Shown here: piece by piece, positions 1-8,785 of the stretch
How positions within the stretch are numbered: position 1 is the first letter of the stretch
Layout of the letters: each line of letters opens with the position of its first letter
Source of the DNA: a virus
Lineage: Duplodnaviria; Heunggongvirae; Uroviricota; Caudoviricetes
Length of the DNA: 8,785 nt
Direction: 5' to 3' (one strand)
Virus record (IMG/VR): IMGVR_UViG_2778261571_000014
Span: 1-8,785 of that record
The notes under the pieces: generated by a model
Database searches by the model: none
What the model was told of the DNA's origin: nothing
What the model saw: only the letters and a program-made list of their open reading frames with translations
Program-made: the position numbers and the translations under genes

Positions 1-1410
1 GGATCACTGGCAGAGGCCGCAAATCAGAAAGGCGATTTCGCACAAAATGCAGCAAAAAATGCCGGAGTTAACCTTGCCGCTCAGGGGGTTCTTTCCGCAG
101 CAGCAAAGGGAATAGGGCGTGGAATAACGGCTATAAAAGGTGATATTGCGCCAGAAGTGGCGAAGAAAATTGCCACATCAGAATCGATGGGCGTGACACC
201 AATGACATCTGATGTTATCCCGCCGAAAAATGCTTTCACTCGCGGCCTAACTCAGGATGCCGAGGGGGCTTTGCTCGGGACAGGCTCAAAGCGAGCGGAG
301 CAATATGCAACGCGTAGTAAGCTGGTAAGTAATTATTTTGACCGTTTTGGTGAGTACAACCCTGATGATGTGGTGAAATCTCTTACCACCACGTTAAGGG
401 GGCGGAAGGATGCCGCTGGCGCTGTTATCAATGACGTCACCAATAAAATGGGTAATGCCGCAGTTGATACCACAAATACCATGAATGCTCTGAATACAGC
501 GATCGCAAGACAGGAACGGCTTGGGACGTCTGCCAATCAAAGCCTGCTTACATCCTTGCGTAACCTACGTGAAGAATTAGCAAACCCTGCAACTGATTTG
601 GATGTTACGTTTGATCTCTTGCGTCAGCACAGAACAGCATTTAGATCTAATGTTCAGGGAGATGCTATGGTCTTCCCCAACCAGGCAAAAGCAGCTACCA
701 ATATGGTAGAGAATGCAATGTCAAAAGACCTTCGTAACGCAGTTGCTAAAAACCTCGGTGCATCAGACGCAGCAAAATACCTTAAAGCAAATTCCGATTA
801 TGCAAACGTTTATAATAAGGTGCTTAATAAAAACATTGCCAACAAGCTCAACAAGGCAAGCAGTGAAGCCAGTCCTGAACTTATAAATACCGTTGTATTA
901 AGCAGAAAACCATCTGACGTGAAACGAATCTGGAGCGCACTGGATGATAAGGGGAAAGATGCTATGCGTGCAGCTTACGTCAGCAAAATAGCGGAAAAGG
1001 CCGGGGACTCTCCAGCCAAGTTCATCACTGAAGTTAATAAGCTGAAATCTCAGTCAGGCGGTGAAATTTACAACACTATTTTTTCTGGAAAGCACATGAA
1101 AGAGCTTGATGCTCTTCATGAAGTTCTACAGCAAACAGCAAGGTCAGACACCGCAAATGTAGTAACTCAGACGGGGCAATCGCAAGCCAACAGGATAAGG
1201 ACGATTGGCGCAACTACGACTCTTGGCGTATCAATGGGGCTTGAGGCTGGTTTCGGTGCAATGATGCGCTTGTATGAGTCTAAAGCAGCAAGAAACATGC
1301 TTCTCCGCCTTGCAAACGTCAAGCCTGGAACTCCGGCATATGAGCGAGCGTTAAATCAGGCTGCTAACGCCGTTCGCCCTCTCCTAACTAACGAAGCTAC
1401 CAGGCAGTAG
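1..1410 (+). CDS. Phage DNA-ejection (injection) protein, P22 gp16-like by position; 5'-truncated by the window edge
   Basis: Frame 1 is open from base 1 with no stop before the track ATG at 157, so the 417-aa ORF is the 3' part of a longer gene; stop TAG 1408-1410. The translation is Ala/Lys/Asn/Thr-rich with no TM segment. Product is assigned from synteny (directly upstream of the sie/immI block and tailspike), not from a recognised motif. Confidence 0.65.
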
Positions 1411-1429
1411 AAATGAACGCCAAGGAAGG

Positions 1430-1759
1430 CTATTTAATTCTCTTTTCAATGGCTGCAATTATTGCTTTTCCTGATGTTTCAGGAGATTTTGTAGCCATAT
1501 AAGACGAAAAAATCATGTCGGTCATTCTTTCATAACTTACTATTTCCCACTTAGCCAATGCATGGGACAGTTTGTAGTTGTCATCAGTTAGTGCCCTTAT
1601 GGAATTTTTTAAGTGTTTATTCTCTTCTGTTAATCGCGCAATTTTTGTATCAATTTCATGTGAGCGATCTAATTCCTTAACCTGTTTCTTGAGGGCAGCT
1701 AACCCTGCATATAGTACGCAACAGGATATCCCAAGAGCGAGTACGACTATTTCTAACAC
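1430..1759 (-). CDS. Small membrane protein (N-terminal TM helix plus coiled-coil-like region); candidate superinfection-exclusion or accessory protein
   Basis: Track ORF 1430..1975(-). Preferred start is the in-frame GTG at 1759-1757, preceded by AAGGAGG (1770-1764) with 4-nt spacing. The product begins VLEIVVLALGISCCVLYAGLAAL (hydrophobic, about 22 aa) followed by a charged heptad-like segment (KKQVKELDRSHEIDTKIARLTEENKHLKNSIRAL). The upstream extension 1760-1975 is W/H/C/F-rich and overlaps the better-looking + gene 1790..2155. Sits where sieA lies in P22. Confidence 0.5.
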   Translation of the reverse strand: MLEIVVLALGISCCVLYAGLAALKKQVKELDRSHEIDTKIARLTEENKHLKNSIRALTDDNYKLSHALAKWEIVSYERMTDMIFSSYMATKSPETSGKAIIAAIEKRIK

Positions 1760-1789
1760 ACCAACCTCCTTAGTTTTTCGCAGGATACC

Positions 1790-2155
1790 ATGAAAAAAGT
1801 TAACATTGGAAACGTACCAAAAATGCTCGTTCCGCTCTTTGAGAGCGGTACAATTGTGTTTTGTAGAGACTTTCCAGAATGGCAACGCCTGCATCAAAAA
1901 CTTGGCGTTGACGTGCATGACTCGGACGCCAACGGAGCGTCTCATACAATGAGTAGCGAGAATGGTGTTTTGCATGTGATAGGCGTGTTCAATGGCAAAC
2001 TATCTACTATTGCCCATGAGTGCGCTCACATGGCATTCGATATCTGCTCAAGGGTAGGTGTTGATGTTGAACCAGGAAGAGCCAACGAGACTTACTGCTA
2101 CTTAATGAGCAGGCTTGTTGAGTTCTGCGAGCGACATATCAAAAAGCCGGAGTGA
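1790..2155 (+). CDS. Hypothetical 121-aa protein with an HExxH motif (possible small zincin / ImmA-IrrE(M78)-like metallopeptidase)
   Basis: ATG 1790 preceded by AGGA (1781-1784) with 5-nt spacing; stop TGA 2153-2155. The translation contains STIAHECAHMAF (HECAH encoded at 2015-2029), which resembles the xTxAHExxH signature of M78/ImmA-type peptidases. The function is inferred from the motif only. Confidence 0.55.
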   Translation: MKKVNIGNVPKMLVPLFESGTIVFCRDFPEWQRLHQKLGVDVHDSDANGASHTMSSENGVLHVIGVFNGKLSTIAHECAHMAFDICSRVGVDVEPGRANETYCYLMSRLVEFCERHIKKPE

Positions 2156-2163
2156 CCCGGCTT
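2144..2163. terminator. Hairpin between convergent genes (AAGCCGG-agtgac-CCGGCTT); probable intrinsic terminator, better on the minus strand
   Basis: 7-bp stem 2144-2150 / 2157-2163 with a 6-nt loop that contains the TGA stop of 1790..2155. On the minus strand the stem is followed directly by TTTGATAT, giving a 5-T run with the stem Ts. On the + strand it is followed by GATTATTACTTTTT. Confidence 0.35.
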
Positions 2164-2168
2164 GATTA

Positions 2169-2348
2169 TTACTTTTTGCTGTCTGGAGTTCGCTTATCTA
2201 ATACCCAGCCATGACCTGGCTTTGTTGTTGGTGGAAGCCTTTCGTTGTCCTTGACGGTGGCAAAATTGTCTTTCTTACCGCCGCGCGGGCCAACTTCTTG
2301 GTATATTCCGCCGTTTTTTCCTGTGTTTTCACCTGGTTTTTTCGCCAT
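2169..2348 (-). CDS. Small 59-aa Gly/Lys-rich hypothetical protein
   Basis: Track ORF 2169..2363(-). Preferred start is the second ATG (2348-2346), preceded by GAGG with 6-nt spacing, giving MAKKPGENTGKNGGIYQEVGPRGGKKDNFATVKDNERLPPTTKPGHGWVLDKRTPDSKK. Low complexity, so coding status is uncertain. I have an unverified recollection that a 59-codon ORF occupies this position in P22. Confidence 0.4.
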   Translation of the reverse strand: MAKKPGENTGKNGGIYQEVGPRGGKKDNFATVKDNERLPPTTKPGHGWVLDKRTPDSKK

Positions 2349-2437
2349 GATATACCTCAACATGCACTCGTTATTGGGCGATTAAATATTGATCTCATTT
2401 TATGAGTAGTCAATATGGTCCAAAAAAGGCAAAAATT

Positions 2438-2465
2438 AACCCACCTTCAGGTGGGTTTTTTGTTT
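2438..2465. terminator. Bidirectional rho-independent terminator (AACCCACC-ttca-GGTGGGTT followed by TTTTGTTT)
   Basis: 8-bp stem 2438-2445 / 2450-2457, loop 2446-2449, T-run to 2465 on the + strand. On the minus strand the same stem is followed by AATTTTTGCCTTTTTT. The TGA stop of the minus-strand RHH gene (2449-2447) lies in the loop. Confidence 0.6.
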
Positions 2466-2767
2466 AGCAGTTCTCTCAACTTTTCGTTCTGCTCTCTGAA
2501 CTTTTCCTGTATTTCTTTTTGCATGGCGATAACCTGGGCTTGAAGTTGAACTAGCGCATCAACATTTAGCGGAACCGAGACGCTGTTGATTTTATCTGCT
2601 ATTTCCCCGAGTGTATTTTCTGCATTCAAGGCATCTTCCAGTATCTGAACAATCTCTGAGTTCATTGATCTGCCGTTACGTTTGGCTCGTTCAGCTATAG
2701 CATCCCGCATTCCTGCAGGAAGCCTGATATTGAACCTATCCATTTCATGACTAGGGAACTTGCTCAT
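2447..2767 (-). CDS. Ribbon-helix-helix (Arc/Mnt-family) repressor, 106 aa, with a C-terminal coiled-coil-like extension
   Basis: ATG 2767-2765 preceded by GAGG with 4-nt spacing; stop TGA 2449-2447. The N-terminus DRFNIRLPAGMRDAIAERAKRNGRSMNSEIVQILEDAL matches the Arc/Mnt beta-strand and helix signature (FN.R.P ... NGRS.NSE) recalled from P22 Arc and Mnt. It is divergent from the arc-like gene, which is the Mnt position in P22 immI. Confidence 0.75.
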   Translation of the reverse strand: MSKFPSHEMDRFNIRLPAGMRDAIAERAKRNGRSMNSEIVQILEDALNAENTLGEIADKINSVSVPLNVDALVQLQAQVIAMQKEIQEKFREQNEKLRELLNKKPT

Positions 2768-2803
2768 ATGACCTCAACGTAAAGATGTTCGCTAAACAAT
2801 AGC

Positions 2804-2866
2804 ACCAACTTGACATCAAAATAAATGGTGTTAAATTGGTTCTAGAACCAAGTTGGTATCATTATA
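2804..2866. promoter_or_regulatory. Divergent control region of the immI-like locus: rightward Pant-like promoter plus palindromic operator candidates
   Basis: Seen directly: -35 TTGACA (2810-2815), 16-bp spacer, extended -10 TGtTAAATT (TG 2829-2830, hexamer 2832-2837). A perfect 16-bp palindrome TTGGTTCTAGAACCAA (2836-2851) overlaps the -10 and predicted start. A 9-bp inverted repeat ACCAACTTG (2804-2812) / CAAGTTGGT (2849-2857) flanks it. A perfect TATAAT on the minus strand (2866-2861) is a candidate leftward -10 but has no good -35. Confidence 0.5.
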
Positions 2867-2878
2867 GGAGGATTACTT

Positions 2879-3052
2879 ATGAAAGATGTGCTTTACACAG
2901 GTCGTAAAAGTCAAAGTTTTCAGCTTCGTTTGCCAGCGCGAATGAAGGAGGAGATTAGACGTGTTGCTGAAATGGATGGAATTTCTATCAACTCTGCGAT
3001 TGTGCAGCGACTGGCTAAAAGCCTGAGAGAGGAAAGAGCTAATGCCCAGTAA
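2879..3052 (+). CDS. arc: Arc-like ribbon-helix-helix repressor, 57 aa (absent from the supplied ORF track, presumably below its length cutoff)
   Basis: ATG 2879 preceded by AGGAGG (2866-2871) with 7-nt spacing; stop TAA 3050-3052. Translation MKDVLYTGRKSQSFQLRLPARMKEEIRRVAEMDGISINSAIVQRLAKSLREERANAQ aligns by eye with P22 Arc (…QFNLRWPREV…AEENGRSVNSEIYQRV…). It lies between the divergent RHH gene and the antirepressor gene, as arc does in P22. Confidence 0.75.
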   Translation: MKDVLYTGRKSQSFQLRLPARMKEEIRRVAEMDGISINSAIVQRLAKSLREERANAQ

Positions 3053-3125
3053 AAATAGTGAAGCCCAGCAGTGCGCGAACACAAACTGGGCCTCTATGTC
3101 AGTAACCGTATGCAAGGAAACTAAC

Positions 3126-3752
3126 ATGAATATTGTAGCAAAATCAGATTACAACTTCCACGGAGTTGAGTTGGTGCCCACCCGTGATATGCATGGTGTT
3201 TGGTTTACATCATCTAATATTGCATCTGCACTTAAATACGCAAATAGTCGTGCAGTAACAATGATTTATAACAAGTATAGCGATGAGTTTAGCGCCGGAA
3301 TGACTCAGGTACTCGAAGTGAGTACCTCAGGAAATTATCGCAAAAAAGTGCGAGTTTTCTCACTACGCGGTGCCCACCTAATCGCGATGTTTGCTCGCAC
3401 TCCGGTAGCCAAAGAGTTTCGCCGCTGGGTGCTGGATATTTTGGATCGGCAGGCAGAATGCTCACCGATTGCAAAACAGTTTACTGACGAAGAACTGGTT
3501 AATCTCTGCTACTTACAATTGTGGATGGAGAAGAGTCAACAAATGTGCAAACACATCTACCCAGGAATGAAGCAAATTGGTTCTGAGCTTTCAGGAAGAA
3601 TTTACGATATTGCATATGAGACTCGCTATATGTCAGAAGAAACCAAGAAATCACTTCTTCGTGAAATGAAGAATCTTGATACCAACAATTTTGTCGTAAA
3701 GAACGCTCAGCCAATGCTGACAAAACTGCGCGGCGAGGAATGGATTCATTGA
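3126..3752 (+). CDS. Phage antirepressor, Bro-N/AntA-type N-terminal domain
   Basis: Track ORF 3042..3752. Preferred start is ATG 3126, preceded by AAGGAAA with 5-nt spacing. The recognisable domain (NFHGVELVPTRDMHGVWFTSSNIASALKY … VRVFSLRGAHLIAMFARTPVAKEFRRWVLDIL) begins about 10 aa after it and matches the Bro-N/AntA pattern (F.F…WF…A..L… ending …A..F..WV). The alternative ATG 3042 overlaps the arc stop by 11 nt and cannot be excluded. Stop TGA 3750-3752. Confidence 0.7.
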   Translation: MNIVAKSDYNFHGVELVPTRDMHGVWFTSSNIASALKYANSRAVTMIYNKYSDEFSAGMTQVLEVSTSGNYRKKVRVFSLRGAHLIAMFARTPVAKEFRRWVLDILDRQAECSPIAKQFTDEELVNLCYLQLWMEKSQQMCKHIYPGMKQIGSELSGRIYDIAYETRYMSEETKKSLLREMKNLDTNNFVVKNAQPMLTKLRGEEWIH

Positions 3753-3781
3753 TTGGTGCGCCGGACGGCGCAAAAAGAAAA

Positions 3782-3802
3782 CCGCCAGTGTGCTGCTGGC
3801 GG
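3782..3802 (-). terminator. Terminator-like GC-rich hairpin on the minus strand (CCGCCAG-7 nt-CTGGCGG followed by TTTTCTTTTT)
   Basis: 7-bp stem 3782-3788 / 3796-3802. On the minus strand it is followed by a T-tract (complement of the A-run 3772-3780); on the + strand no T-tract follows. A second short hairpin GCGCC-ggac-GGCGC lies at 3758-3771. No minus-strand gene is evident upstream of it. Confidence 0.3.
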
Positions 3803-3840
3803 CCTATGTCACACCCTTACTACCACATAAGGAATGCCTA

Positions 3841-4566
3841 ATGACTTTGAAGAATGTAGCAAACATCGGATCCGTTGTCACGGATAAAACCATTGACAGC
3901 CAAAGTCTTCTGATGATGGTTAATGAAGCTCGCAAGTTATGTGGAGAGCCATCAGTACGTAACAACAAATTCATCGAGAAAATTGAGGATGAATTGGAGG
4001 GCGAGACCTACACAAAAAGTGTAGGTCGGAAAAACGGGGCTGACATTGATGTTATCTCCATGACTATCAAGCAGGCGCTTCGTGTTGCTGCTCGCGAATC
4101 TAAAGCAGTTCGCCGAACACTTGTAGACAAACTTGAAAGTATGCAGGAAGCACACATTAAAAGCGGTAAATCAGCGAGTGGACTTGTTGAGTATCGTCAA
4201 GCGCGAACATTGAAAATGACGGTTGAAGCTGTTACCAATCTGTTCGATCTGATGCCAAATCTTGCGCCTGAGGCAAAGCAGACAGCGGCAGCAAGTATAA
4301 TCAACCCGCTCGTTGGTTTTAATGCAATACCTCTTCCGGCAATAGAAGAGCATTACTACTCAGCAGGGGAGGTTGCAGAGCAGCTTGGAGTAACGGCCAA
4401 CAAGATTGGTCGTATTGCTAACGCAAACAACCTCAAAACTGAGCAGTACGGGAAGTTCTTCCTAGATAAATCGGCGCATTCCAGCAAACAGGTAGAGGCG
4501 TTCCGTTACAATTCTGAAGGCGTTAAAGCACTACAACACCTGCTACATGGCTCAAATGTGGCGTAA
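3841..4566 (+). CDS. Second antirepressor-like / phage regulatory protein (Rha- or KilAC-like features), 241 aa
   Basis: Track ORF 3790..4566. Preferred start is ATG 3841, preceded by AAGGAA with 6-nt spacing; the 3790 start would place the GC hairpin in coding sequence and lacks an RBS. Stop TAA 4564-4566. The C-terminal segment SAGEVAEQLGVTANKIGRIANANNL looks like a helix-turn-helix. Family assignment is from memory of antirepressor C-terminal domains and is tentative. Confidence 0.55.
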   Translation: MTLKNVANIGSVVTDKTIDSQSLLMMVNEARKLCGEPSVRNNKFIEKIEDELEGETYTKSVGRKNGADIDVISMTIKQALRVAARESKAVRRTLVDKLESMQEAHIKSGKSASGLVEYRQARTLKMTVEAVTNLFDLMPNLAPEAKQTAAASIINPLVGFNAIPLPAIEEHYYSAGEVAEQLGVTANKIGRIANANNLKTEQYGKFFLDKSAHSSKQVEAFRYNSEGVKALQHLLHGSNVA

Positions 4567-4584
4567 CATTTTATAATGAAAACT

Positions 4585-4615
4585 AAACCCGCTTAATCGC
4601 GGGTTTTTTCTTTCC
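4585..4615. terminator. Bidirectional rho-independent terminator (AAACCCGC-ttaatc-GCGGGTTT followed by TTTCTTTCC)
   Basis: 8-bp stem 4585-4592 / 4599-4606 with a 6-nt loop, then a T-rich tract on the + strand and AGTTTTCATT on the minus strand. It lies 19 bp after the + gene stop (4566), and the minus-strand mnt-like stop (4595-4593) sits in the loop. Confidence 0.6.
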
Positions 4616-4850
4616 TTAGAATTTCAGCCGCAACTTCTTTTACTCGTTCCGAGATTAATGAGGCCAGCCTCTCTTCTTCATCACGATACCCGCTTACAGG
4701 TGATGGTTTGGAGAGTGATTCTTCCATCGTAGCCACAATTTCGGAATTGATAGACCTGTTATTCATTTTTGCACGCTGCTTAATCTTAGCGTGCAACTCG
4801 TGCGTAAGCCTCAAGTGGAACTGCGCCTCATCGTATTTGCTGTACATCAT
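4593..4850 (-). CDS. mnt: Mnt-type ribbon-helix-helix repressor homolog, 85 aa
   Basis: Track ORF 4593..4928(-). Preferred start is ATG 4850-4848, preceded by GAGG with 5-nt spacing. The product MMYSKYDEAQFHLRLTHELHAKIKQRAKMNNRSINSEIVATMEESLSKPSPVSGYRDEEERLASL… aligns along its length with P22 Mnt as recalled (…HFNFRMPMEVREKLKFRAEANGRSMNSELLQIVQDALSKPSPVTGYRNDAERLA…). The upstream extension (MHTEMVRLLICTVGFTMPFHPFGEAL) has no RBS. Confidence 0.8.
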   Translation of the reverse strand: MMYSKYDEAQFHLRLTHELHAKIKQRAKMNNRSINSEIVATMEESLSKPSPVSGYRDEEERLASLISERVKEVAAEILRKEKTRD

Positions 4851-4982
4851 CAATGCCTCACCAAATGGGTGGAATGGCATCGTAAAACCTACTGTACAAA
4901 TCAACAATCGTACCATTTCGGTATGCAATAAACACCAACCGTAGCCATGCTGCGGCGATTCCTTGTATCTGGAGCAAATTAA

Positions 4983-6896
4983 ATGACAGATTCAATAAAT
5001 GCCAATGTTGTAGTAAGCATGCCTTCTCAACTCTTCACTATGGCTCGTTCTTTTAAAGCCGTAGCCAATGGCAAAATTTATATCGGTAAAATTGACACGG
5101 ACCCGGTAAATCCTGAAAACCAGATTCAGGTTTATGTGGAGAACGAAGATGGTTCTCACGTTCCTGTTTCGCAACCAATCATCATTAACGCTGCTGGATA
5201 TCCGGTATATAACGGACAGATTGCTAAGTTCGTAACTGTGCAAGGCCATTCTATGGCTGTTTATGATGCGTATGGTGCACAGCAGTTCAATTTTCCAAAC
5301 GTGCTGAAGTATGATCCTGATCAGTTTCGTCAGGAACTGGCAGGTAATAGTGGTGCGTCACAGATTGGTTCCTCATCAGGAAATACTGTTCAACAAGAAA
5401 TAGATCGTCTAAATAAATTTGGTTATGCTTATGGTGTTAGATTAAGCGCGTATATGCATGAAAGCGACCCCTTAACAAGCGCCCTGACTGCATCACGGGA
5501 AAAAAGACTACCACTTGTCATTGATTGTGATGCGACATATAAAACTTTAGTGGTTTACAGTAATGACAGAATAATTGGCTGCGGTGATCATACATTAACA
5601 AAATCCGGTAATGATAAGCCATCCATTCCACCGGCACAACAACCAGAACGCCCTTCTGGTTCGATGACTAATTTTAGTGAAATTGATGCAGGTATCGTTA
5701 TTGTTCACCCTGACAATGGGTCGGCAACCAATATTATTATTTCAGGGTTTAACCTCGCGACTAACTCACATTGCGACTATGCGATACATTGCTCTTTCAT
5801 GTCTTTTACAAAAATAGAAGATATGAAGTTCAACGGGTACAAGCGTGGGATTAAATGGTACACCGCCTATGGAAATCAGCTATCCAGAATATTTTCACTT
5901 TACTACTATTCTGTCACTGATGTTTTTTCAGACTATATTTGCTACGATTTTTCTGACGGTAACTACCCATCAGGCACATCAAATACCCTAACAAACGTAA
6001 CATGCACCAACTATAAGAAATGCTATTACGTAGCAAATCTAAACTACTCTACATTTACCAATTGTGGTGGTGAAGGAGTAGAGTCACCAACACCAGTATC
6101 CACAGGAAACATCCCACAGACCTTCGAGTTTGTCAATTGCCCTAATATTGTCCTGAATACACCATATACTGAGAATTTAAGGGGTGGATTTATAAGGGCA
6201 GTTAGTGATGCATCCGGGGTGTATCAAGGTGCCGCAACTATGGTCATCAATGGGCCAGAGGCGGTCGTGGGTATCACAGGCACCACTACCAATGTTGGCG
6301 CTAAGCTTCTGGACATTCAGGGAGGAGTTAACTGTGTGATAAACGGTGGATACATGACAGGTGCTGCAAGTGGGTATTTCCTTGAGTTTGGTGGGGCATC
6401 GGATGACGCAACCCTTACGATAATAGGGATGGAAATGCGCAACGTATTAGAACAAATACGAAACCATCCTGGATATAACGGAATTAACTCTATAAAAGGG
6501 TTAAGGCCTATGCAGTTACTTCGTAAAGGGATTGGAGATGCGACCGGGACCGGGATAGTAAACTGGAAAACAGCTGCCGAAGACCAGTATTTTATGGGCG
6601 GGGGAAATTTCACTAAAACAATACTTGGTGGATTTTATAAGATAGAAATTACGTTACCCATAGGATCTTCCGCATCAGGCGGAGAAGTTCAACTCTTGCT
6701 GTCAGATACGGATACAGACAATGGAGTTATAATTTCACAATGCTATGTTCCTCCAGTGTCAAGCGGTAAGTTTACTGCCTCCATAAGCTACGAGGGTAGA
6801 TTGCCAGGTGGAAAGTTTCTTTATGTAAAAACTAATAATGCCAATTGGTCATCTGGATACGATCCAGACTCAATATTTAATGTTGTTCTGAAATAA
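4983..6896 (+). CDS. Tailspike protein (P22 gp9-like N-terminal head-binding domain; divergent C-terminal receptor-binding domain), 637 aa
   Basis: ATG 4983 preceded by GGAG with 8-nt spacing; stop TAA 6894-6896. The first ~113 aa ([12 protein letters not shown]…[21 protein letters not shown]…ENEDGSHV…[12 protein letters not shown]…VLKYDPDQ) closely match the P22 tailspike N-terminus as recalled. The rest is Gly/Thr/Asn/Ser-rich, consistent with a beta-rich receptor-binding domain, and is not recognisably P22-like. Confidence 0.9.
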
Positions 6897-7284
6897 CAAT
6901 ATTTATAATGATGCACGCAAAGCTTTGTACTGGATTGCAAGGCTTTGCGCTATACGATAGTGGCTAAGGTGGGTCACTCTACCTTCTCATCAATCCAGTC
7001 CGCCCACCATTGCATCATTTCTCTGCGCTTAACGTAGCGGATGCCTCACTATCACACGGTGATGGTTCATTACTGGTTTGCAGAATGGATAGAGAACTGA
7101 GGATAAAAGATATCCCAAAACCCCAAAATCTCATCTTTAGGATTTGCAGAAAGGTAGGCGTGAACAGATACCTACGCATGAAGACGGGACTAGCTCAGAT
7201 GTGATATTTGTGGTGATCACATACATCATCAACGATGCTCGTTATGGTGAGTTTGATGACTACCCGCTGAAGTGAAAATTGTGT

Positions 7285-7308
7285 TGTGTACCAAATTGCG
7301 TACCAAAC
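7285..7308. repeat. Tandem 12-bp direct repeat (TGTGTACCAAAT / TGCGTACCAAAC) in the prophage-host junction region
   Basis: Two adjacent 12-mers identical at 10 of 12 positions; the core GTACCAAA occurs at 7288-7295 and 7300-7307. Function unknown; could be a protein-binding site or an att-proximal arm-type site. Confidence 0.3.
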
Positions 7309-7618
7309 TAAAATCACAAATCATGAAACCCTTGTTCATGGCGGTTCTCAGGGGTGTTTCGCGTAATCGTGAAACAAAAAGGTAGATTGTTGCTTACCGT
7401 CATTCATCATTAGGTTAAATCCGTTATTTCTGCTGTCTGCCAGAGTATCAAATATCACCGTGCTAATCAGCTTTAGCGCCACAATTTGGCAGCGAGTGGC
7501 AACAGATCATGTCAGATAAAAATGAGAGGGTAGTCACATTTTCTTGCACTTTATTCCAGCCAGTTCATAAGTATTTCCGTAAAAAGAACAGCTATTTGAA
7601 ACTCCTGAGGGTTTGCTG

Positions 7619-8785
7619 TTGAAACGCCGTCTTATTATTGCTGCTTCTTTGTTCGTTTTTAACTTATCGTCTGGTTTTGCGGCGGAAAACATTCCTTTTT
7701 CACCTCAGCCTCCAGAGATTCATGCCGGGTCCTGGGTATTGATGGATTACACCACCAGTCAGATCCTCACCGCGGTTAATGAGCATCAACAGCGCAATCC
7801 CGCCAGCCTGACAAAGCTGATGACGGGTTATGTCGTGGATCGCGCTATCGATAGTCATCGCATTACGCCAGACGATATTGTCACCGTGGGGCGCGATGCG
7901 TGGGCGAAAGATAATCCGGTGTTTGTCGGTTCTTCACTGATGTTTTTGAAAGAGGGCGATCGCGTATCGGTACGTGATTTAAGCCGTGGTTTAATTGTGG
8001 ATTCCGGAAATGACGCTTGTGTTGCTCTGGCTGACTATATTGCCGGTGGGCAACGGCAGTTTGTTGAAATGATGAACAACTATGCCGAGAAGCTGCATCT
8101 CAAGGATACGCATTTTGAAACAGTGCATGGTCTGGATGCACCTGGCCAGCATAGCTCGGCTTATGATTTAGCTGTGCTTTCTCGCGCTATCATCCACGGC
8201 GAGCCCGAGTTTTATCATATGTACAGTGAGAAAAGTCTCACCTGGAACGGTATCACCCAGCAAAACCGTAACGGGTTGTTGTGGGATAAAACCATGAATG
8301 TTGACGGCCTGAAAACGGGTCATACTTCTGGTGCCGGGTTTAATCTCATTGCTTCGGCTGTAGATGGGCAGCGTCGTCTCATTGCAGTGGTAATGGGGGC
8401 TGACAGTGCAAAAGGTCGTGAGGAAGAGGCAAGAAAATTACTGCGTTGGGGGCAACAAAACTTTACTACGGTGCAAATTTTGCACCGTGGGAAAAAGGTC
8501 GGAACGGAACGCATCTGGTATGGCGATAAAGAAAATATCGACCTGGGAACGGAACAAGAGTTCTGGATGGTGCTACCGAAAGCCGAAATTCCACATATCA
8601 AAGCCAAATATACCCTTGATGGTAAAGAGCTCACCGCGCCAATTAGCGCCCATCAGCGGGTAGGGGAAATTGAACTTTACGACCGTGATAAACAGGTGGC
8701 GCACTGGCCGCTGGTTACCCTGGAATCTGTCGGGGAAGGCGGCATGTTTTCCCGCCTGAGTGATTATTTCCACCATAAGGCCTGA
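7619..8785 (+). CDS. dacD: D-alanyl-D-alanine carboxypeptidase DacD (penicillin-binding protein 6b), host gene
   Basis: The translation carries the three class-A PBP active-site motifs: SxxK (NPASLTKLMT), SGN (VDSGNDA) and KTG (GLKTGHT), behind a signal-peptide-like N-terminus (RRLIIAASLFVFNLSSGFA). It matches E. coli DacD as I recall it. Preferred start is TTG 7619, with GAGG (7607-7610) 8 nt upstream, giving the 388-aa MKRRLII… protein; the track's TTG 7613 has only 2-nt spacing. Stop TGA 8783-8785. Confidence 0.9.
   Translation: MKRRLIIAASLFVFNLSSGFAAENIPFSPQPPEIHAGSWVLMDYTTSQILTAVNEHQQRNPASLTKLMTGYVVDRAIDSHRITPDDIVTVGRDAWAKDNPVFVGSSLMFLKEGDRVSVRDLSRGLIVDSGNDACVALADYIAGGQRQFVEMMNNYAEKLHLKDTHFETVHGLDAPGQHSSAYDLAVLSRAIIHGEPEFYHMYSEKSLTWNGITQQNRNGLLWDKTMNVDGLKTGHTSGAGFNLIASAVDGQRRLIAVVMGADSAKGREEEARKLLRWGQQNFTTVQILHRGKKVGTERIWYGDKENIDLGTEQEFWMVLPKAEIPHIKAKYTLDGKELTAPISAHQRVGEIELYDRDKQVAHWPLVTLESVGEGGMFSRLSDYFHHKA

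Follow-up and report, generated by a model that had tools for sequence, protein, structure and literature searches.

A conserved UUG as the probable start codon of dacD in Escherichia coli and related Enterobacteriaceae

The last gene in the 8,785-nt stretch of DNA analysed here (the window) is a copy of dacD that opens without an ATG, and this raises the question of which codon the ribosome uses to begin its translation. Direct reading of window positions 7400-7800 gives ...CCT GAG GGT TTG CTG TTG AAA CGC CGT CTT ATT ATT GCT..., in which GAGG occupies 7607-7610 (7611 is also G) and is followed by the codons TTG (7613-7615), CTG (7616-7618), TTG (7619-7621) and AAA (7622-7624), so that GAGG is separated from the first TTG by 2 nt and from the second by 8 nt. 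The dacD frame opens after an in-frame TAA at 7580-7582, and no ATG or GTG lies in frame between this stop and codon 42 (VLMDY), which leaves the two TTGs and the CTG as the only candidates. A mechanical open reading frame call runs from 7613 to 8785 and yields 390 aa; counted from 7619, the product has 388 aa and the N-terminus MKRRLIIAASLF. An earlier, sequence-only reading of this locus had placed GAGG, both TTGs and their spacings exactly where they are found, to the base, had remarked on the missing N-terminal ATG (none precedes codon 42 in frame), and had proposed the second TTG as the start of a 388-aa product.

Window 7619-8785 is dacD, and it encodes the DD-carboxypeptidase PBP6b, a serine-type D-Ala-D-Ala carboxypeptidase. 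The product scores 843.4 bits against the NCBIfam DacD equivalog model NF008489 (cut-off 610), and the paralogue models fall below their own cut-offs (DacA, 455.9 bits; DacC-type, 422.5 bits). It is identical to K-12 DacD at 385 of 388 residues, the differences relative to K-12 being G47S, G53V and S375G (window 7757, 7775-7777 and 8741-8743), and an exact-sequence look-up finds this 388-aa variant to be common, on at least 1000 contigs. The name DacD given by the sequence-only reading is thus upheld. The protein also matches the solved PBP6b structure (PDB 5fsr, E = 6.8e-243), and the SxxK, SxN and KTG motifs of penicillin-binding serine peptidases are present in the translation as SLTK, SGN and KTG, identical to those of the 5fsr chain. 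By reading, the N-terminus MKRRLIIAASLFVFNLSSGFA followed by AENIPF, together with the C-terminal tail ...GEGGMFSRLSDYFHHKA, has the appearance of a cleavable Sec signal peptide and a membrane-anchor helix. The 5fsr construct starts at AENIPF, and published work on DacD describes a 21-residue signal peptide, a mature enzyme comprising residues 22-388 and a 14-residue anchor (PMC4916385). The region is found in 5,418 of 5,426 complete E. coli genomes. The chromosomal place of dacD is between sbcB and sbmC; in the window the 5' end of sbcB (7362-7410) is divergent from dacD, and the window itself stops at the dacD stop codon, with sbmC coming next in near-identical genomes.

The elements of the start region, with the evidence for each, are as follows.

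7607-7610, + strand: Shine-Dalgarno core GAGG (duplex -6.1 kcal/mol; GAGG in 79 of 80 species, AAGG in one)
7611-7618, + strand: 8-nt spacer between Shine-Dalgarno core and start, containing the non-conserved in-frame TTG 7613-7615 and CTG 7616-7618 (1-10 Fitch steps per position)
7619-7621, + strand: dacD TTG start codon (CDS start in K-12 RefSeq and PGAP; TTG in 80 of 80 species, 0 substitutions; unpaired in the local fold)
7619-7681, + strand: signal peptide coding region, 21 codons, MKRRLIIAASLFVFNLSSGFA (translation; PMC4916385; PDB 5fsr construct)
7619-8785, + strand: dacD CDS, PBP6b, 388 aa plus stop (NF008489 equivalog; K-12 identity; 5fsr match)

The TTG start of dacD is already known, and the reference E. 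coli annotation uses it. In RefSeq, a 1167-nt CDS at 2081381..2082547 encodes the 388 aa of E. coli K-12 MG1655 DacD (b2010, NP_416514.4), and the K-12 sequence shows that this CDS begins on the second TTG, at the base equivalent to window 7619. PGAP places the dacD CDS start of the near-identical strain FDAARGOS_1337 at the equivalent of 7619 as well. The sequence-only reading had suggested comparison with a curated entry, in which an N-terminus of MLLKRR would have spoken for the earlier codon; the K-12 reference begins at the later one, and the comparative data presented below point to that codon independently. Agreement among RefSeq records carries no independent weight, since annotation spreads from one pipeline to the next.

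A duplex scan against the 3' end of 16S rRNA identified GAGG as the sole Shine-Dalgarno-like element and revealed none upstream of it that could serve TTG 7613. Optimal spacing between a Shine-Dalgarno sequence and its start codon is 5-9 nt (PMC7264876); the 8 nt that precede TTG 7619 fall inside this range, and the 2 nt that precede TTG 7613 fall outside it. As weak support, a predicted local fold of 7560-7680 has TTG 7619 largely unpaired and TTG 7613 mostly paired. About 3% of E. coli genes begin with UUG, which supports initiation at 10-100% of the AUG level, as compared with 1-2% for CUG and AUA (10.1101/063800). In-frame starts farther into the gene were rejected as well: use of the TTGs at codons 11 and 41 or of the ATG at codon 42 would in each case cost the product its charged n-region or its entire signal peptide.

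Comparison across species provides the larger part of the evidence. A scan of species-representative genomes collected 80 DacD loci from Enterobacteriaceae under 18 genus-level labels, with protein identities of 81-99%. Codon 0, equivalent to window 7619, is TTG in 80 of the 80 species, which are related and do not amount to 80 independent trials, a kinship that tree-based step counts address in part. The Shine-Dalgarno core at -12..-9 is likewise retained (GAGG in 79, AAGG in one), at a fixed distance of 8 nt from codon 0 in all 80. At codon -2, equivalent to 7613, the same loci carry ATA (29), ATG (24), TTG (9), TTA (7) or other codons (11), so a start codon (ATG or TTG) is found at this position in only 33 loci and is absent from 47; codon -1 encodes L, P or S. 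Moreover, in 36 of the 80 loci the frame contains neither ATG nor GTG nor TTG from the upstream stop to codon 0, and in 34 loci just five codons are open upstream of codon 0. In those 36 loci, the signal peptide is retained only if translation begins at the TTG of codon 0.

Two controls, run on the window plus 79 loci with a frameshifted Shigella copy left out, show how ordinary positions in the gene behave. None of 25 columns with an invariant leucine keeps a single codon (3-6 codons are used in each, the commonest accounting for at most 90%), and in a neighbour-joining tree each of 80 four-fold degenerate sites required 5-33 Fitch steps (mean 21.7, none zero). On the same tree, each base of the codon-0 TTG and the AGG of the Shine-Dalgarno core required 0 steps, spacer positions required 1-10, and position -4, which distinguishes ATG from ATA at codon -2, required about 10 and toggles even inside the Enterobacter cloacae complex. 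Since internal leucine codons and four-fold sites drift while the TTG bases stay unchanged, the TTG at codon 0 is not an ordinary leucine codon. Two TTGs and a GAGG within 15 nt are by themselves statistically unremarkable; it is their conservation that exceeds chance. From these alignments, the conserved unit is GAGG-N8-TTG-AAA, and the upstream TTG or ATG is a labile by-product of the spacer sequence. The copy omitted from the controls, that of Shigella flexneri SFBU0723 (L019:1501-2663), carries a frameshift near codon 33 and an open reading frame of only 63 aa from the start, which makes it an apparent pseudogene, although an error of assembly is possible.

Taken together, these observations indicate that translation of dacD very probably starts at UUG 7619 to produce a 388-aa precursor, and that the TTG at 7613 is an accident of the spacer. 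We infer the use of 7619 by the ribosome in vivo from the arrangement and conservation of the site. In the proposed sequence of events, the 3' end of 16S rRNA would pair with GAGG at 7607-7610 and position the 30S subunit 8 nt upstream of UUG 7619, this codon would be decoded by fMet-tRNA to give the precursor MKRRLIIAASLF..., and removal of the 21-residue Sec signal peptide would release mature AENIPF... The UUG at 7613, lying within the spacer 2 nt past the Shine-Dalgarno core, would serve no start function.

The longest-ORF rule leads to a different proposal, namely that UUG 7613, the first start of the longest open reading frame, is the principal start and that the protein has 390 aa, a form that does appear in some GenBank and IMG annotations. 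This is very unlikely, given curated annotation, the Shine-Dalgarno spacing, the lack of conservation of the codon itself and the strict nucleotide conservation, unlike that of an internal leucine, of the TTG two codons downstream. A milder version would have most ribosomes initiate at UUG 7619 and a minor share at UUG 7613 (in Salmonella, Citrobacter and E. albertii, at an ATG in the 7613 position), so that a precursor two residues longer, MLLKRR..., would accompany the main one and mature to the same protein. The 7613 codon is a canonical in-frame start codon on the same mRNA, a small, measurable amount of initiation does take place at near-cognate or poorly placed codons in E. coli (10.1101/063800), a valid signal peptide is kept in both precursor forms, and the long form is annotated in many records where the ATG is present. 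We nevertheless consider such dual initiation improbable: a 2-nt spacing is outside the optimum and 7613 has no other Shine-Dalgarno sequence, 47 of the 80 species have no start codon at this position, and the predicted fold pairs most of the 7613 codon and leaves 7619 free. It would also be functionally inconsequential, because the difference leaves with the signal peptide.

The same cleavage means that ordinary N-terminal proteomics cannot discriminate between 7613 and 7619, since AENIPF is seen either way. Signal-peptide reasoning was rejected as a discriminator for the two codons, as both N-termini keep the KRR n-region, the hydrophobic core and the GFA/A cleavage site. A search of the available data of initiation-profiling studies (TRAINSPOTTER, retapamulin and Onc112 Ribo-seq, TetRP and ribosome-signature TIS) and of N-terminomics studies met no mention of dacD and no experiment that maps its initiation codon directly, and a full-text literature search on the dacD start codon or TTG returned nothing relevant.

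In public databases, both lengths of DacD are in circulation. By exact-sequence look-up, the K-12 388-aa form occurs on at least 1000 contigs, the K-12 390-aa MLLKRR form on 7 contigs in nr, and a 390-aa member in IMG on 46 contigs; the MLLKRR form is carried by a minority of submitter and IMG annotations and is not curated. In species with ATG at codon -2, annotation of dacD is inconsistent and both forms are deposited widely and in comparable numbers, as these counts illustrate.

S. enterica diarizonae: 390-aa form on 921 contigs, 388-aa form on 824 contigs
C. braakii: 390-aa form on 226 contigs, 388-aa form on 465 contigs
E. albertii: 390-aa form on 2 contigs, 388-aa form on 85 contigs
E. 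hormaechei: 390-aa form on at least 1000 contigs, 388-aa form on at least 1000 contigs

For the DacD of Salmonella and Citrobacter that is annotated as 390 aa, the conserved TTG likewise points to 388 aa as the probable functional length. The longest-ORF form (390 aa, MLLKRR) is still in public databases, and in species with ATG at codon -2 DacD residue numbering consequently shifts by two between records. A separate observation is that the 90% cluster of Salmonella and Citrobacter proteins counts among its members some thiosulfate reductase PhsC proteins of 254 aa, in what looks like a clustering artefact.

The region upstream of the start also contains a small open reading frame of 37 codons (+ strand, ATG 7509 to TGA 7620-7622), and the TGA overlaps TTG 7619 by two bases (TTGA), an arrangement that could couple dacD translation to this frame and make 7619 a site of re-initiation. 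Such coupling is exceedingly unlikely. The frame is not conserved, 50 of the 80 loci having no ATG in it and other Escherichia species lacking it; in many species it is open for just 4-13 codons, and the TGA is the automatic outcome of an invariant TTG AAA. Conservation of ORF 7509-7622 reaches no farther than E. coli and its closest relative, which makes it probably a chance open reading frame.

Other parts of the dacD leader are well conserved. When the 160 nt that precede the start were aligned with MAFFT for 79 distinct loci plus the window, two blocks stood out as conserved across 18 genus labels, with variable sequence between and around them.

7534-7552, + strand: conserved block TCACATTTTnTTGCAnTT (columns at least 95% conserved in the alignment; putative promoter or regulator-binding element)
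7577-7586, + strand: conserved block CCGTAAAAAG, lying 33-42 nt ahead of the start codon (ten consecutive conserved columns, seen in all rows of the start-region alignment; possibly a -10 region or leader element)

From their conservation, the two blocks are likely promoter or regulator sites of the acid-induced dacD promoter. A sigma-70 consensus scan of 7300-7700 returned no promoter on the + strand, and an Rfam search of 6890-7760 returned no family at E <= 1.

The dacD-sbcB intergenic region (7411-7618) is intact in the window, and sbcB itself is broken. From position 1 to about 7361, the window is the right end of a P22-like prophage, in which the following genes are recognized.

157-1410, + strand: gp16-like DNA-transfer protein
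2447-2767, - strand: Arc-like repressor
3042-3752, + strand: Bro-N/P22_AR antirepressor
4983-6896, + strand: tailspike with P22 head-binding domain

K-12 homology resumes at 7362, which is 49 nt inside sbcB, and the sbcB ATG lies at 7410 on the - strand. The remnant at 7348-7410 (- strand) reads MMNDGKQQSTFLFHDYAKHP*, and only the first 49 nt of sbcB adjoin dacD, so that, as read at the dacD-side junction, the prophage interrupts sbcB after about 16 codons. Lambdoid phages are known to insert into sbcB (PMC8065619). Among 5,426 complete E. coli genomes, coverage of window 1-7361 does not exceed 72%, and the closest phage, JEP4, matches window 1-7031 only piecewise, over 27% of the query. The N-terminal stretch of the tailspike (to about 5320-5333) is shared with the best-scoring complete E. 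coli genomes, and the receptor-binding part lies beyond it (5320-6896); this part of the tailspike may confer an uncommon O-antigen specificity.

A codon as weak as UUG can be considered in light of what is known about PBP6b abundance. There are 6-29 molecules of PBP6b per generation at pH 7.4 and 200-800 copies at pH 5, a rise that comes mainly from a 25-40-fold increase in transcription (PMC4916385). The earlier suggestion that a non-ATG start fits a weakly expressed gene is reasonable in view of the number at pH 7.4. The start codon is a constant factor in low expression of dacD, transcription is the regulated step, and we infer that a weak UUG helps to hold down the basal synthesis of PBP6b. 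In prokaryotes, start codons generally experience selection for AUG (PMC5622118), and the dacD UUG is never AUG or GUG in the 80 species, in which an AUG two codons upstream, too near the Shine-Dalgarno core, has been gained and lost repeatedly. Such a pattern would be expected of a translational throttle under selection, and one tentative and on balance doubtful explanation is that selection actively maintains the weak UUG as a translational throttle that caps PBP6b at neutral pH and leaves induction to the acid-responsive promoter; such a throttle is possibly sensitive to IF3. If this explanation is true, it follows that the DacD proteins annotated at 390 aa in Salmonella, Citrobacter and some Enterobacter have been given the wrong start. 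Strict retention of the UUG makes dacD a clean case of a sub-optimal start codon that has been conserved where the product is held to a few tens of molecules per generation at neutral pH. Beyond annotation hygiene, the finding on the dacD start matters little.

When compared with known systems, dacD has the features of canonical Shine-Dalgarno-led UUG initiation, likewise having a 4-nt Shine-Dalgarno core, an 8-nt A/T-rich spacer and AAA as the second codon; the mechanism is ordinary, and only the retention of UUG in 80 species sets it apart. With K-12 dacD, the 258 nt upstream of the start align with the window, and the Shine-Dalgarno sequence, the spacer and the two TTGs match at every base; the two genes differ by three protein substitutions and in the upstream sbcB, which in the window is interrupted by the P22-like prophage. 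The dacD genes of Salmonella and Citrobacter share the GAGG-N8-TTG-AAA arrangement of the window and differ from it at codon -2, where they have ATG in place of TTG and where many of their records begin the protein.
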